DNA of 64,000 nucleotides, taken from assembly GCA_000165425.1 (NCBI GenBank), contig CT868016.1:124001-188000 (forward strand), given 5' to 3'. The translations under genes and the position numbers were made by a program. Source of the stretch: Paramecium tetraurelia. Taxonomy: Eukaryota. The notes under the pieces were generated by a model. The model had not been told where the DNA came from and did no database searches. It saw nothing but the letters and a program-made list of their open reading frames with translations. Shown here piece by piece: positions 10,166 through 63,047 of this stretch; the first letter of the stretch is position 1, and each line of letters opens with the position of its first letter.

Positions 10166-11857
10166 TCAATATTTGGAATTCTTCTTCCCTGCCACTACTG
10201 TTGTTGATTATAAATTGTTGATTTGAGGGGGAATGTAACTTTCTGAAAATTTAGGTTATGCAGATTCTCCAAATTGATTCGGAGGCACGTACGCAGGATC
10301 TCCAAATTAATTCGGAGGTACATACTCATTTACATAGTTTGCTGGGTTGCTTTGATTTTGAATTATGTTATTTTTAACACTAGAATAGACAGGTGGAAAT
10401 TTGGATTAATGTGGGGATAAAGGGTTTTGATAAGGACTTGTTTCAGAATGATGGATGTCTTCTTTTGAAGGAATTGGTTGTCTCTAAGTGTCTGACTCAG
10501 GAAAGTACGCTTTCTCCTTCTTTTGTTTGAAGCACCAATGGAACATCTATACTATAAACATCATAATTAAGATGAATTCGCTTATGGCTATAATTATTAT
10601 CGAGATCGTTATGAGCGAAATGTAGGTATTGACATCTGCAGGGAAGAGGTTGGGAAAATTTGCAAATACATTCTAAATTTGGTCAGAAGAATAGCAATCT
10701 GCAATCGATTTAAAGTAGAGTTCTGAGTCACTTCTGAGCTTTTCTTGATATAGGATCAGACCTCCTTCAATCAATATGAATGACATCTGGCATATCAGTA
10801 GGATTTTTAAAATGACTGTAATTATTCGAATGTCATTCACTATCCTAAATTTAAGCATATAAATTTCTATGATTAACACAATTCCTATAAATCCAGAGAA
10901 AATCTCTTTTATGACTACATAAATGAACCCAATTTCCTGTATCGATTATTCACAATTTTCAGTGTCATTAATCATATTGTTATCAATCTATATGCATTTA
11001 TTATCAGAAGTTGAAGCAATTTTATTCTTTATTAAAATATATTAAGTACTCTTGCTGTCAAATATGTAACAGCTGAATTAGTAACAGATGAAGGAACTCC
11101 ATTAAAAGATAATGCTTCTAAGCCTTACTTAGCGAATTCTGAAAGTGTTGTTTATTCTATTTTGACACTATTATCTGTGTCGAAATCAGAACCTTCACAA
11201 TTTTCAGGATCAATATAATCACTATTATTGGTTAACCCTGCTGTTATATAAATTAAGGGATTCAAACATGGGTATCCTCGTATTACAACTTGAATTTTAA
11301 ATATCCCGTAGGATGAATTCTCTCTTTGAATATACAAATCCCTTTTACTCTCTAAGTTCTGATCTGCATCTTCATCAACAACCTCATTTTAAATTATAGT
11401 CAATTTAGAAATGGGACACTAAGATCCTTCACTGGTTTCTATGCAATATGGGCCACAGTTGTATTCAGTAGCCGAACATTCAGTCGACAATCTAATGTCA
11501 ACATATCTAGTCACACAAATCAATTGAGAATACCATCTAGTAATATTGTATTCTGCAAATGGAAATAATTATTAGGTTTCTTCAGATGAATCACAATCCA
11601 AGTCTCTAAAATATACTCTAATTATTTAGTATTTGATACTGTTTGATTGGTTTGTAGACTAGATTATCAGAGATGTACGCAATTGTAGCATTCTGAGCTT
11701 CGTATTAATAGTCATTTGAATAAAAATCAACTACCCCATGGACGATATCCAATCCAATGCTGATCAACAAGGAGAGAATCATGAAAAAGAGAGTTAAAGA
11801 TTTCACAACTTTATCAAAAATAGAACTATGTATTTGTTCAATTGGATTCTTTTTCAT
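10166..11857 (-). CDS. Ciliate Cys-rich transmembrane protein (N-terminal TM, Cys-rich ectodomain, C-terminal TMs, Pro-rich tail)
   Basis: 1692-nt code-6 ORF with 'ECSATEYNCGPYC...QCPISKL', hydrophobic segments near 10900-10560 and a duplicated YVPPNQFG motif in the tail. Confidence 0.7.
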
Positions 11858-11903: not shown

Positions 11904-13297
11904 TCATTAGTTCTCTTATTGATTTCTAATGGAACTTCCTGGAAGTACAATTTATTTTTTTATTAAAAATTAGTCTTCTTTAGTGAAGCCTAATTGTGAG
12001 AGCTTTCTGTTGAAGTTGGTTCTTGTTATAGCTTCATCCAGATATAAATTCATCATTTAAAATTCCTTCATAAACTCATTATACAACAATTTCTGTTCAT
12101 CCTTATTACACATATTGATAATCCTCTTTGATTTCAGATTAAATTAACTTAGCAACAAGGTCTTTTCTTTCTTATTGTCCATTCTCTCCTACATCTGTGA
12201 TTTCCTATCTCCAGAGGCTAGAGTGAGCTCTTTGCTCTCTGGTTGGTATCTTGATTTGGGAAGAGGATAATTCTTAGAAAAATTGAAGAACTATTACTCG
12301 AACATGGAACTTATCCTCTTCTTTTAAGGTCTGATCTAATATTTGTTTTTCAGTTGATCTTCCTCTATGTTGTGATTGTGTCTCACTTTGGCCTCATTTA
12401 TTTTTGACTTGATAAAATCATTAGCCTTCTATTTGAATGCAGAATAGATCTCTTCCTCCAAATATTCTGTTGAATTCAAGTCTATTCCATATTACAACAC
12501 TAACTTCAAGAGTTCCTTATCGTAATCTATTTAGGTTATCTTCTACTACGACGTCTAATTACTACGCTTTTCTTCAGCTTTGCCTAAATGTGTTGTGCTT
12601 TTCGTAGATTTCCCTAATTTCTATATGAAATTCTCCGTTTCTTCTTTCTCTTTTTTTAGTTATTCTATGTGATCTTCAACATAATAATAAAATAGATTTT
12701 ATTCATACTGAGATTTGGTCACTTAATCTCTGCTTGACATTTATTCAGAGGAAGTTTAAAATTAACTGATTGCTCTCTTTCCAATTTCATTTAATTTCTC
12801 TTAAGACAATACCTTAGCTTTATTGATTGGAGCCTTAACTAAACCTAAATCTAGAAAACAATCACTGTCTAAAAATGCCTTATCAAATTCTGTTTCAAAC
12901 TTCACTTCATATTATTCATAAATCTTTTCCAAATCTGCCTCTTCTTAGCCCAATTATCTAGCTATTTTCCTTCTTATTAGATAATTCTTTACTGATTCTA
13001 TTAAATCTCTGTTATTTAAGATATTCATCTTCCTTAGTTTGGTTTTTGTGTCAACAAAAGTATCGAGTATCCTAAACGATTGCAGTTAACGATTAAATCT
13101 AATGATGCTGCAATAATGTACCTCGCATCAGGTGTGTTATTGATTAATTTGAGCTTCGCTTTCACCTTATTTACCAAATTTATCACTCTGTCTGTGCTAC
13201 ATCCATCCTGATAATCCTGTTACAACTTCGTTTGTTGAGAGATCTAAATATTTGGCAAAGCATGATTCAATTTTTGGAATTTCAGATTTTAAGTCAT
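11904..13297 (-). CDS. Hypothetical charged/coiled-coil protein
   Basis: Starts MTQNLKFQKLNHALP; one 23-nt intron near 13100-13122; open frame to TGA 11904-11906. Confidence 0.65.
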
Positions 13298-13451
13298 TCA
13301 GTATATATTCTTAGAAATTAAATTTATCATATCACTATCTAATAAATTTAATAAATTTAATAAATTTATATATATATATACTCTGCCTATTGACAATTAA
13401 CAATTATCCTGAACGAATTATTATAATCTAAAACTAATTACAATAATATAT

Positions 13452-13675
13452 TTAGCCAGTGGATTTGTGACTCCATGACTATTTTAAAAAAGCCTCAATT
13501 CGAGTCTGTAATCTTCAGAGATAGATGTAGATGTGATAATTATATAAATTTCGTTTGTTTAATTTGAGAACGAGCTTAGCTTCCGGAATAGGAGCCTTGC
13601 CCGCAACCTATTAAATAGGTTTAAACTTGGATATGTTTTGCATCAATAAATGAAAAGAACCCGCTAGGATTGAGT
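13452..13675 (-). ncRNA. Candidate orphan structured small RNA (~190 nt to the U6 run, ~224 nt with the 3' hairpin)
   Basis: GC-enriched intergenic island with a USE and TATA at the expected spacing upstream. 5' CUCAAU pairs with AUUGAG ahead of a U6 run. Internal hairpins AACCUAU/AUAGGUU and GCGGGC/GCUCGU; 3' hairpin UAGUCAUGGA/UCCA-C-UGGCUA. Confidence 0.6.
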
Positions 13676-13696
13676 TTTATTAATTAATAAATATTC

Positions 13697-13736
13697 TTTT
13701 ATATTAGATTATTAATTTTAAATTTATGGGGGTTTT
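13697..13736 (-). promoter_or_regulatory. Ciliate snRNA/telomerase-RNA-type upstream sequence element (USE) plus TATA
   Basis: Minus strand AAAACCCCCATAAA at 13736-13723 (about -61 to -48) and TATAAAA at 13703-13697 (about -28 to -22) relative to 13675. This resembles the CCCATAAA-core USE found about 55 nt upstream of ciliate snRNA and telomerase RNA genes. Confidence 0.6.
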
Positions 13737-13828
13737 ATATTATAATTAATAATTAATAATTAAAGAATGTTCAATTTAATAATTGCGATCTTATGAGAAC
13801 TTTTTACATAGATAAATTAATATATATA

Positions 13829-15245
13829 TCAATACATCTAACTGTTCATAGTTATTCTTGTATGTTATTAGTTTTCGAGTTTTTTTCTGATTCTCTCATG
13901 TTACAAATGAATCGATCTAAGTTTGTTGATATAGAGACACACTTAATAATAAAAATCATAAATACCAAAGAGTAGAAGCACTATCAAAACGAAACAAAAA
14001 CTCACCAACAACTAGACGATTGGATTGTATTAATTACCCTCAATCCTTTAGACAATCAACTATTGAACGTGTTATTCATTTGTAGTATTGTAAAATAAAG
14101 TGAATTATTACTCCTCACTATTTTGGACATGTGAACATAATATCCGAAATGGCAATTTAATGATATTGCCTATGTAAAAGTTAGTTCCAGTAACTGCGAC
14201 GACCTTTTTGTCTTTCAAGATGAGATCATGCAATCCAATAAATTTCCATTCCATATCTTCAATGTAATGCGTATTGAATCCTAGAACTACAATTTCTTCT
14301 TGAGTTTCACTTGTTTACAGTTTCTGGATATTTTTCAACTTTTGAATACTTATTAATTTGTAAGTGAGAATGTCATATTTATTCAATTGAACATTCGATG
14401 ATATGTAAATGAATTTGTTGGTTGTTTGAATCTTGTCAGGATTGTTGAAATCTAGAGGGTGTTGGGAGTCTAGATTTATTACTCCTTTGTCATTCAGTTC
14501 AGCTACGATTAATCCGAGCTTTTGATCCAAAATGAACAGTTTGTTGGGCTCTATTTTATTATAACTAATGCCTATTGGATGCAGATGTAGATGCACAGCA
14601 CTGGAATGATGTTTGATTGCGATTTCTTGGTTTGGATAGTTGTAGTGGATTTCGTAGATGTCAAAACCATAGGGACCAACGGCAGTTATGATGTAGTTGT
14701 TAAGATGGTAAATTGTTTGATGCCTTTGTCCTCTATTGATGAGAAAGTAGGGTATTATAGTCCTGTTGGTAATCAATAGGATGGAGTCTTGTTGATGAAT
14801 AAAAATATTGTTGAACTTGTCTTTAAAAAAGGAGACATCGAAATCTTTGGATAAATAATCGGACAGGTTGATAATATCAATTGTTTAACGTTGTTGCGCA
14901 TCAATTTAGTATAGTTTGAGGTTGTCACTTATGATCCAAAATTGAGTATCATTCTTTTAAATAATTGCTATGAACTAATGAAAATAGAATTGAGTCTCAT
15001 CCATGAAATCTATACTTCCATTATTTTAAAAAGATTTACTTGATCACGTTGTCCTCTATGATTTTGAGTTAGTCGAGGTTATTCTGGATGATTGGTTTAT
15101 ATATCTGACATTATTCATTGGTTGGTATCAATTCAGCATTAATCGCAGTGGGTAATGATATTTGTAATTGATGACTGTATCTATATATCTTGGTGTCATC
15201 TACAATCAATTATTTTGAAATTTATATAATCAAGAATATTATCAT
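13829..15245 (-). CDS. Single-pass membrane protein with a signal peptide and beta-rich ectodomain
   Basis: MIIFLIIQISKQ start, 25-nt intron at 15015-15039, C-terminal TM LLVSFCFVLIVLLLFGIY, TGA 13829-13831. Confidence 0.7.
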
Positions 15246-37645: not shown

Positions 37646-39371
37646 ATGCAAAAACTCAACACCTACGAGGCAACTCCTTGGGTAGCAGGATATCAATGTT
37701 GCATCGTCATCTACACTTTCATAAGTTTTGGACTTATTTTGGTTTCAGTGTTCAATTAATCAATACTCATGGATTCTGTATGTTAAAATGATATATAATC
37801 AAGGCACCTCAATTTTATTCAGATTGGGATAATAAATTTGTGGAAGACCTAAAAATCGGAGAATCCTGCCAAGAAGGCTATCTTAACTTGTTAAATTTCA
37901 CATGGCCTGGTACTGAACTTGGATGTGATTGTACATAATCGAATGGAACTGGCACATACAAATATTAGAAGTAAATAAAAATAAAGATCAAGTTATTATT
38001 ATATGGAATGCAGCGAGTTTATGCTAGCTGAGAATTGCCAACCAGTTGAACCAATCTACGAAATGCAATTCCACCATTGGCCTATTAATGATTAATCTTC
38101 GGTTAAAGGTTGTTTAATATGATCTATCTCAAGCTTTCAAATTATGTGCCAAACAGAGCACTGAAACTGCAATAGAAGCATTTCAAATAGAGGAGGCTAG
38201 CGAGGGATACAAAAAGTGTGGAAATGTCTATTAAGTTCCATCTAATGAATTATGTCCAATTAGCGATTTTTCTATAACGACAGATACAACTGGAGAGGCA
38301 ATCGGAACTACTGGATTGTATCTGAAAATTAAGAGAGTCTAAGAGGAAGAAGTGCCATTGACTGCATTTACAATAGGATTTAGTAAATACCATTTTAAAC
38401 TATTACTAGATTCAATATGTTTTTCAGTTTCAGAAATAAATTAGTTTTAGTATTTAGATAAGATGATCAATTATAATTGCTATGATAATGATGAGAGATT
38501 TGTACGTTTTACTAGTGATATGCCTTATAGTGATTTACTAATGGTAAATGAAATAAAAAACGAATATAATCAATTATATAAAAATGCAATTGTTGAAAGC
38601 AGAAGTATTTGATAAAATAATGTAGATGTGAATCTGTTTTACAAGTACCTAACTCAATTCTATTACAACTCGTCATAGTTGTGTTAAGCAGAAGATCTAG
38701 AATACATTTACAATTTGAATGCATACATAAAAGACAATGTAATGGATGTTTAATTAGCTGCGTAAGTGATTGTAGGAATACAAGCAGGAGTGTTCGGATT
38801 CTTAATTCCATTAGTATCAGCAATATCTTTGGTCGGTTGCAATTTTAAATATGCTCATTTGAACAGAAAAAGTTCACTCTATAAGGACTTGTTTGGATTC
38901 TGGTTGGGAGTCAAGATGATAGGTGAGACCCTGTGCACCATCATCTTGGCTGCCGATATGGGGTATTAATAATAAATGATGAACCACTTCTCAGATTTCA
39001 TTAATGCTGATTGTTCTGATAAATACTCTTTACAGGAGATGAGTGATTTCTATAATGAATACGAAATCAAGGTTTACAATTATGTGCTTCTGAATTTCAT
39101 TCTTTGCATAATCACTAATGTCTTTGATATCTATGTCACTTATCTGATGTGCAGAGACAAACACAAGGAAGGGATATTTTTGAAGAATAGTGAGACTTCT
39201 CACCTTAGAAACATCACTTCTACTCATCCTGAAGATTTGCTCAACAGAACCAAGGTACAACCTTAATCAGAAATAAAATAACAACAACGAGACAGTCAAC
39301 AGAAACGACAATTTGATGATGTTGAAATACCAGGCGATGACATGCCCAAACCACATAAACCTGAGAATTGA
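37646..39371 (+). CDS. Ciliate Cys-rich transmembrane protein (same layout as 10166-11857)
   Basis: N-terminal TM, FTWPGTELGCDC, LCPISDF, three C-terminal TMs, DCSDKY; several introns. Confidence 0.75.
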
Positions 39372-61439: not shown

Positions 61440-63047
61440 ATGTCCAAATTTTAATAAGATGGTATAACCATCTGTTTACTGGGGGGGTTCCAGAAGTGGC
61501 CTTCCAGTGCTCAACATTCCTTCACTCCTCACAAATGTGGATTAAGGGTATAAATTTTCACATTACTATTTTCAAGTTTGTTAAATAATTTACATGGCAT
61601 TATAAGGATTATTTATAGAAATTGAATGGCAAACCAATTTAAGTGCCAGTGAGGATTTTCACTTCTCCGAAAGAAGGTAAAATTTGGGTTGATTTTGGTA
61701 GGGAAATATAATGATGGTTATGATAATGAAAACCATGATCTTATAATCAGATAATATGACAAATTATACAACAGCAAAAAGAATATGTAAGTCATGTGAG
61801 GTTTATTGTTAAGAACATATATTTGCGAGGCTCTGTTAGGTGCAGGAACATTCGGCTAAGTGATAAAATGCAGTGTAGAAGGAACGAAACAATAAGTTGC
61901 AATAAAGGTATGTCATTGTGAGGATAATTAGATCATAAAAAATTAACATGCTTTTCAAAAACAACAAAAAATAGAAATAAATGTGCTAAGAACTCTCTAA
62001 ACATTCTCAAAAGAGCAAAACATTTAAAAAAATCGTATAATCTAACTAAATGATTAATTTCTACACAAGAAACACGCGTGCCTAGTTTTCCCTTTGTTGG
62101 CATAGAACTTATTTGAAGTGATGAAGACAAATCGATAAGAAGCATTTAGTGTATCGTTGGTCCGAAAATTTCTCAATCAAATAGTGACTGGACTCACAGT
62201 GGCTGAACAATGTGGAGTTGTTCATGCTGATCTGAAACCAGAGAATATAATGATCGAATAAAAGCAGCCTGTATTGGATGATTGTTCTCTTTAAATCATT
62301 GATTTTGGATCCAGTTGCTTTATGAATGACAAACACCCTTATATCTACATTCAAAGTCGTTTCTACAGAGCTCCAGAGATAATTTTAGAGAATCACTATT
62401 ACAATAGTATGAATATGGAACTATGAATTATTAGCTAAAATTGATATCTGGAGTTTGGGTTGTATAGCAGTGGAATTATTATAGGGTAATCCCCTTTTTC
62501 CTTGTGGGGACCAATACTCCTGTTTGGAGCGAATCATTCAAGTGACCAGACCTACAATAAGTAATGCGTTTGAATATGATATTTTAGCTATGCAGGGATA
62601 TGTGAAAACTGCTCCTGCTTCAAAAAAATACTTTAACTTACTTCAAAATGATACTTTTCAATTAAAATCGAGGGAGCAATTCACAGCTGAGTTTCCTCAC
62701 TTAAAAATAAAAACTAAAGAGGGGTACAATTCTATGCATCCTATAAAGATACTTACCGATCTAGCCCAATATTACAATTAGCAATCTTCAAAAGGTATGA
62801 AAATGAATGCGATATTTGTGTAGATCAACCTACATTCAATTAATTTCTGGATTTCGTGTAGAAATGTCTTGAATGGGAGCCAAGTGCTAGGATGTCTGCC
62901 TAGGATGCTAGTTAACACCCATTTTTGACTGGATAAAATCAAGGATTTGAAATCAACATAGATTTAGATGACTTGTTTGCAAAATTGGATACGTAATCTA
63001 ATTAAAGTAGTACTTCCTCTTTTTATGAAGACCAACCAGAGTTTTGA
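61440..63047 (+). CDS. DYRK-family kinase, YAK1-like
   Basis: GYDNENHDLII, LGAGTFGQV, HADLKPEN, IDFGS, YIQSRFYRAPE; several tiny introns. Confidence 0.88.

Follow-up and report, generated by a model that had tools for sequence, protein, structure and literature searches.

A genome-wide screen of Oxytricha yielded a single new small-RNA family, the Arisong RNAs (Jung et al. 2011; PMC3177221). That paper places seven distinct loci in Oxytricha, where the members include Onc91 and Onc94, eight in Stylonychia, one in Nyctotherus and eight in Paramecium tetraurelia, six of the last corresponding to PM01_1-6 as predicted by Chen et al. (2009, as cited in PMC3177221). It describes genes with a proximal sequence element (PSE) 50-60 nt upstream and a 3' box 5-10 nt downstream, and RNAs that form a "coaxially-stacked dumbbell" whose stacked junction is highly conserved in sequence, end in a 3' GUUC tail that is highly conserved too, have a highly variable 5' end and carry no convincing Sm site (PMC3177221). 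Within the literature searched, the name Arisong is used only by this founding paper; among the matches listed for PM01 in Paramecium, the others being judged by title and opening of the abstract, it is the only one on ciliate RNA, and a search for papers that cite Chen et al. brought nothing further. Here we describe a locus on the minus strand of a 64,000-nt stretch of P. tetraurelia (contig CT868016.1, positions 124,001 to 188,000; hereafter the window, in whose coordinates all positions are given). The locus lies in a 531-nt gene-free spacer of this Paramecium aurelia-complex genome, flanked by two minus-strand genes, and by comparison with the published description we judge it, by a modest measure, probable that it is a gene of the Arisong family (PM01 in Paramecium).

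The upstream end of the locus carries AAAACCCCCATAAA (13723..13736, minus strand; core CCCATAA), a PSE-like element that is read directly from the sequence. It contains the CCCATnAA core of both the Oxytricha PSE, given as TgACCCATnAAnnnTTA in PMC3177221, and the upstream sequence element (USE) of Tetrahymena and Paramecium, given as AAACCCATAA in PMC3273799. The TATA-like box TATAAAA (13697..13703, minus strand) lies 20 nt beyond the only copy in the window of the 9-mer CCCCATAAA. We took the transcription start from the 50-60 nt PSE spacing of Oxytricha, which leads to 13675, where ACUCAAUCCUAG begins on the minus strand; relative to this start the PSE-like element would occupy -61 to -48 and the TATA-like box -28 to -22. 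The PSE distance agrees with that of the Arisong genes, an agreement that is partly circular given how the start was chosen. A PSE at about -55 together with a TATA box some 25-30 nt upstream of the start is the layout of type-3 promoters of RNA polymerase III (Pol III). Both elements are present here, in AT-rich DNA where TATA-like words are common and TATAAAA alone is weak evidence.

Taken singly, the promoter words occur at chance frequency and are not significant. The 9-mer CCCCATAAA is found once in the window against 0.58 expected, with at least one copy in 41 of 100 shuffled sequences, and CCCATAA is found seven times against 8.4 expected. A separately promoted small noncoding RNA gene on the minus strand, belonging to no classical class, is nonetheless supported, because several features combine on one strand: the PSE, the TATA-like box, an exceptional structure about 50 nt past the inferred start and a gene-free spacer. 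This much of the original prediction, which had proposed an independently transcribed small RNA, was borne out, and the motifs that it listed were all located on the minus strand, at the positions it gave: AAAACCCCCATAAA, TATAAAA, ACUCAAUCCUAG, AUUGAG at 13499-13494, UUUUUU at 13491-13486 and the UAGUCAUGGA hairpin.

The structure proposed in the original prediction was a closed multibranch core of four hairpins held by a terminal helix, followed by the U-run and a final hairpin, and it was read either as a Pol III transcript of about 190 nt or as a U1/U11-shaped RNA of about 224 nt. We compared folding energies with those of shuffled sequences (200 shuffles for the whole RNA on both strands, 300 for each piece). 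On the minus strand, the 224-nt RNA folds at -47.2 kcal/mol (z-score -2.71 with 2 of 200 shuffles as good, and about -2.7 with 2 as good in a set of 300), compared with z-scores of -0.5 to -0.7 for the plus strand of the same stretch (52 of 200 shuffles as good at -0.70). This stability is unevenly distributed. The two-hairpin block at 13569-13622 has a z-score of -3.53 (1 of 300 shuffles as good; GC 0.46) and the 3' hairpin stretch at 13452-13485 one of -3.93 (0 of 300; GC 0.38), while the 53 nt at the 5' end (z -0.19; 112 of 300; GC 0.34) and the 83-nt stretch at 13486-13568 (z +1.00; 262 of 300; GC 0.28) are no more stable than shuffled sequence.

In the predicted fold, three helices only are robust. 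Hairpin A (13605..13621, minus strand) is AACCUAU-UUA-AUAGGUU, a stem of 7 bp with a mean pair probability of 0.93-0.94 in four sequence contexts. Hairpin B (13570..13604, minus strand) reads GCGGGC-AA-GGCUCC-loop-GG-A-AGCU-AA-GCUCGU, and its outer stem has a probability of 0.98 in the same four contexts; there is no spacer between the stems of A and B, which abut directly. The third helix is the separate 3' hairpin UAGUCAUGGA/UCCA-C-UGGCUA (13453..13481, minus strand; pair probability 0.97-0.99, whatever the context), which may be part of the RNA or, perhaps, downstream flank; hairpins of 34 nt at least as stable occur at 44 loci in the window. Thus two of the four inner hairpins first proposed hold up (AACCUAU/AUAGGUU at 0.94 and GCGGGC/GCUCGU at 0.98), whereas UUUUCAU/AUG-C-AAAA (0.10-0.23) and UCUG/CAGA (0.06) are weak. 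The closing helix CUCAAU/AUUGAG, of 6 bp, depends on context: its probability is 0.92-0.93 if the RNA runs exactly from 13675 to 13486, and 0.01 with 25 nt of additional upstream flank. With two weak hairpins and such a closing helix, the closed core as a whole could not be upheld.

Two observations point to minus as the RNA strand. Hairpin B contains three G.U pairs, which become A.C mismatches on the plus strand, and the block of A and B folds less well there (z -1.72, compared with -3.53 on the minus strand). The block is also rare in its surroundings. Among 42,632 windows of 54 nt (step 3, both strands), whose mean folding energy is -5.0 kcal/mol with a standard deviation of 3.0 kcal/mol, it is one of only four loci at or below -21.0 kcal/mol and lies more than five standard deviations from the mean. 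A degenerate pattern of the dumbbell matched once in the 64-kb window, against 0.00 expected, so no second copy is present there.

These figures bear on whether there is a gene here at all. A long AT-rich spacer could, by coincidence, bring a PSE-like word, a TATA-like word and hairpins into one place; the promoter words each occur at chance frequency, and T-runs and small hairpins are common. Such a coincidence is, however, quite improbable: the two-hairpin block is one of four loci of its kind in 128 kb of strand sequence, it is strand-specific, it stands at the expected distance from the only CCCCATAAA of the window, and all of this falls in a spacer of 531 nt.

Three further loci lie at or below -21.0 kcal/mol per 54 nt. 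No local structure of the window is stronger than a long hairpin at 38899-38952 on the plus strand (-30.5 kcal/mol over 71 nt when read as 38890-38960), which sits within overlapping long open reading frames (ORFs) of the ciliate code. At 61456-61509, also on the plus strand, two hairpins again form a block (66 nt, -23.9 kcal/mol), which has no PSE word near it and starts about 15 nt after the ATG at 61441, the apparent start of a protein-coding gene; its structure, in the 5' region of a coding sequence, is probably incidental. The fourth locus is at 10265-10318 on the minus strand.

Hairpin B ends, at its 3' edge, in ...GCUCGUUC, which includes GUUC (13568..13571, minus strand). The G and U of this tetranucleotide close the stem of hairpin B and the UC overhangs, an arrangement like the GUUC tail of the Arisong RNAs; by our own estimate it would be found at this edge by chance about 1% of the time. 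Immediately after GUUC, structure and composition fall to background, with GC dropping from 0.46 to 0.28 and the z-score moving from -3.53 to +1.00. The word AAACGAAA (13549..13556, minus strand), which follows 11 nt past GUUC, equals AAAnGAAA, the first half of AAAnGAAAnnGTTTGATTAg, given as the 3' box of Oxytricha (PMC3177221). With 55 AAAnGAAA words on both strands of the window, the chance of one in a slot of 10-15 nt is about 0.5%. This resemblance is weak and post hoc: the second half of the box is unmatched and the consensus is that of Oxytricha, from which, according to the same paper, the Paramecium 3' box differs (PMC3177221).

The locus therefore compares with the Arisong genes as follows. 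In common with the published family it has a ciliate host, an upstream PSE, no Sm site, a 5' part that is long and unconserved or unstructured, two hairpins that touch directly as in a dumbbell (probabilities 0.94 and 0.98), GUUC on the 3' edge of the second hairpin, no match to any classical family and, possibly, a 3'-box half-site about 11 nt downstream. Two features are unlike it: the TATA box at Pol III-like spacing, and the T6 run with an extra stable hairpin 77-115 nt downstream, which are absent from the family description. The suggestion that this RNA might coincide with an orphan candidate of earlier Paramecium screens looks right to that extent, as the description of PM01/Arisong in PMC3177221 fits.

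If the locus is an Arisong gene, the mature RNA would be about 108 nt long, from 13675 to 13568, rather than 190 or 224 nt. The PSE seen at 13736-13723 would recruit snRNA-type (small nuclear RNA) machinery and set a start near 13675 on the minus strand. The transcript would open with a mostly unpaired 5' arm of about 53 nt (13623..13675, weakly structured in the predicted fold) and continue into two hairpins with no base between them, whose stems may stack into the dumbbell. A cut a few bases past hairpin B, at GUUC (13568), possibly directed by the 3'-box-like signal, would then yield the 108-nt form. The closing helix would count as downstream flank, as would the T6 run and possibly the 3' hairpin. 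By analogy with the published family, the dumbbell may serve as a protein-binding handle and the variable 5' arm may pair with a nuclear target RNA; membership would be compatible with a family of guide RNAs in which the variable 5' arm selects the nuclear RNA target.

Several points weigh against membership. The locus was compared with a verbal description, and after the sequence had been seen. Both ends of the RNA are inferred, and the match of AAACGAAA may mean nothing, since Paramecium is said to have a 3' box different from that of Oxytricha. The TATA box at -28 and the PSE at -61 to -48 form the Pol III type-3 layout, and the PM01/Arisong genes are described as Pol II-type. Scans of metagenome, viral and prokaryote contigs returned no relative, and hence neither covariation nor proof of conservation. 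A further point comes from two sequencing runs, X17 and X18, which we guess to be RNA and which may be DNA: they contain 17 of 35 and 16 of 35 sampled words of 13420-13780 (0.49 and 0.46). If contiguous, the words span about 190 nt, in excess of what an RNA of 108 nt would supply; conservation of the promoter plus the 108-nt RNA (169 nt) in another strain would produce nearly the same share. In the metatranscriptome runs X19 and X20 only 0.09 of the sampled words were present, which is no evidence of expression or habitat.

The word shares of X17 and X18 are also compatible with some 190 contiguous nucleotides (the RNA status of the runs being a guess), and this brings in the first of the two lengths originally proposed, an orphan Pol III transcript of an undescribed class that would start at 13675 under a U6-type promoter, end at the T6 run at 13486 and have its ends held by CUCAAU/AUUGAG. 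Both promoter elements suit this reading, with the PSE placed from -61 to -48 and TATAAAA from -28 to -22, as does the T6 run (13486..13491, minus strand), which Pol III, were it to transcribe the gene, would use as terminator; the closing helix reaches 0.92-0.93 with exactly these ends. The Oxytricha RNase P, telomerase and signal recognition particle (SRP) RNA genes carry the same PSE, with T-runs marking those read by Pol III (PMC3177221), and T-runs follow the USE-driven monocistronic genes for small nucleolar RNAs (snoRNAs) of Tetrahymena (PMC3273799). However, the 83 nt that this reading adds beyond GUUC are unstructured, have background GC and look like plain spacer, and the 190-nt fold has a z-score of only -1.91 (13 of 300 shuffles as good). 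The closing helix is only 6 bp long and is lost with 25 nt more flank. The T6 run starts 77 nt beyond the structured part, and a T4 run is present inside the RNA, at 13653-13656. The density of T-runs of six or more is 0.97 per kb per strand, and one is expected within 190 nt about one time in six. The models of U6, U6atac, 7SK, RNase MRP, RNase P, telomerase, SRP, Y and vault RNA gave no match. We regard this transcript as the main rival, a live but unlikely one, and not the best reading of the locus.

One form of it would be an RNA outside the Arisong family in which the terminal clamp and the protein-binding dumbbell present between them the AT-rich single strand at 13500-13567. The unstructured stretch at 13492..13548 on the minus strand includes AUUGAG (13494-13499), which is able to pair with CUCAAU (13669-13674), and the layout recalls the presentation of the template in ciliate telomerase RNA; we consider this form rather improbable. 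With the type-3 Pol III genes in general (U6, U6atac, 7SK, RNase MRP/P and ciliate telomerase RNA) the locus shares a PSE at about -55, a TATA box at about -25 and a downstream T-run. It differs from them in having no covariance-model match, no telomeric template and a T-run 77 nt past the structured part. No run of four C, as a telomeric template would require, is present within 13452-13675; the only run of C4 or longer is that of the promoter.

The second length originally proposed, about 224 nt, would make the RNA an Sm-class snRNA shaped like U1 or U11 and built on a four-way core; its Sm site would be the U-run, and the hairpin at 13453-13481 would form the terminal stem-loop. It has the best whole-molecule z-score (-2.73), a PSE of snRNA type and the very stable 3' hairpin (z -3.93, probability 0.97-0.99). 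Still, U1, U11, U2, U12, U4 and U5 were not matched at E-values up to 10, two of the four core hairpins have probabilities below 0.25, and this fold ties up the 5' end in the closing helix, so that no free 5' end is left to read a splice site. The 3' hairpin, moreover, is equalled at 44 loci in the window, and 83 nt of the molecule are unstructured with background composition. An Sm site is an A-U-rich run flanked by A and G. The U-run here reads CUUUUUUA, without these flanks; in its context, GCUUUUUUAA, it is bordered by C and A, and we could not sustain its role as an Sm site. An Sm-class snRNA is, on this evidence, highly improbable, and a literature search on the ciliate minor spliceosome (U11/U12) brought nothing bearing on the locus.

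We searched more widely for known RNA classes. Rfam 15 gave no match in the whole window at gathering thresholds, and at E-values up to 10, in three nested stretches of the locus, it returned only unrelated chance matches far below threshold (E 0.98-3.6), consisting of mammalian long noncoding RNA pieces, a plant-virus pseudoknot and a microRNA. Thus no Rfam family was found at E<0.9, and nothing in Rfam supports U1, U2, U4, U5, U6, U11, U12, U4atac, U6atac, U3, 7SK, RNase P/MRP, SRP or ciliate telomerase RNA; Y and vault RNA were not matched either. These results agree with the original prediction, in which the RNA belonged to no classical class, and the covariance search produced no strong match to a known family that would remove its novelty. 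A tRNA or tRNA-like identity was dropped, as the 64-kb window contains no tRNA genes.

Many ciliate snoRNAs are absent from Rfam. This class was considered on its motifs, using the definitions of the C, D and H/ACA motifs in PMC3273799. A USE-driven snoRNA precursor of the Tetrahymena kind, from which a box C/D or H/ACA RNA is cut, would account for the promoter: AAACCCATAA is reported at 22 of 27 intergenic snoRNAs, 53-179 bp upstream of the mature RNA, and runs of T3-13 downstream of monocistronic ones (Andersen and Nielsen 2012; PMC3273799). The USE word, the stand-alone intergenic position and the T-run are all shared with these genes, and the locus also has UUGAUGC, which resembles a C box, at about +29, together with CUGA near +158. 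However, the locus has no credible C/D or H/ACA box set. UUGAUGC agrees with RUGAUGA at five of seven positions, CUGA lies about 125 nt away, within a different helix of the minimum-energy fold, and no terminal stem flanks the boxes; there is no CUGA at all within 13568-13675. A hairpin-hinge-hairpin-ACA arrangement is likewise lacking, hairpin A being 17 nt long and hairpin B having an internal loop of 2x2, in which a pseudouridylation pocket would not fit, so that no pocket-bearing hairpin pair was found. We give a snoRNA precursor a slight chance. The supplement of PMC3273799 also lists seven unclassified TtnuUkn RNAs; TtnuUkn1-5 showed no obvious likeness to the locus, in a comparison made by eye only.

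Outside the ciliates, nematode SmY RNAs are small, driven by a PSE and 3' box, present in multiple copies and of unclear function, with two hairpins flanking an Sm site. The resemblance is to a small PSE/3'-box-driven two-hairpin RNA; in contrast, the hairpins of the Paramecium locus abut and no Sm site is present, and, the phylum being different, no homology is implied.

Relatives were sought by sequence as well. A 20-mer over the hairpin junction had no match in metagenome contigs, and a purine/pyrimidine-degenerate pattern of the dumbbell with variable loop had none in metagenome or viral contigs. An 18-mer gave 25 loci in prokaryote genome contigs and a 14-mer at least 120 in viral contigs, all of them chance seeds in GC-richer DNA; when 13400-13800 was compared by BLAST with 145 such seed loci, the longest alignment was at most 23 nt.

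The genes on either side set the limits of the spacer. Upstream, the product of the ORF at 13829-15004 (minus strand, ciliate code) shares 88% identity with a P. primaurelia protein of 455 aa and 80% with one of P. sonneborni. Its last residue coincides with the C-terminus of the P. primaurelia orthologue, and because the two share this terminus the stop at 13829 is real. A protein-coding reading of the locus was rejected, as the flanking gene stops at 13829 exactly like its 455-aa orthologue. The next minus-strand ORF has its ATG at 13297. Open frames of the ciliate code are expected by chance in the spacer because only TGA is a stop, and the longest stop-to-stop frame across the RNA in translation table 11 is 46 aa, outside the dumbbell. 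Neither flanking ORF has a Pfam family. Relatives of the 13829-15004 product form only two clusters among 5.8 billion proteins (P. primaurelia and P. sonneborni), and both cluster proteins are 455 aa long, carry the name "transmembrane protein" and have no Pfam family. Compared with P. primaurelia, the P. tetraurelia ORF has an insertion of eight residues, GIYDFYYQ, in a hydrophobic C-terminal segment, which could be an unspliced intron of 24 nt.

For the anatomy of this RNA, the analysis replaces a U1-shaped 224-mer by a unit made of a 54-nt dumbbell with GUUC behind a 53-nt arm. If the locus is an Arisong gene, it adds another member to the family, possibly one of the eight loci already catalogued for P. 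tetraurelia, which would be useful and unsurprising; if it is not, it would be an uncatalogued PSE-driven RNA and more interesting. The Arisong/PM01 RNAs are common to distant ciliate classes and have snRNA-type promoters. A cleanly bounded locus in Paramecium, an organism with good genetics and RNA interference by feeding, would offer a practical route to the function of the family.

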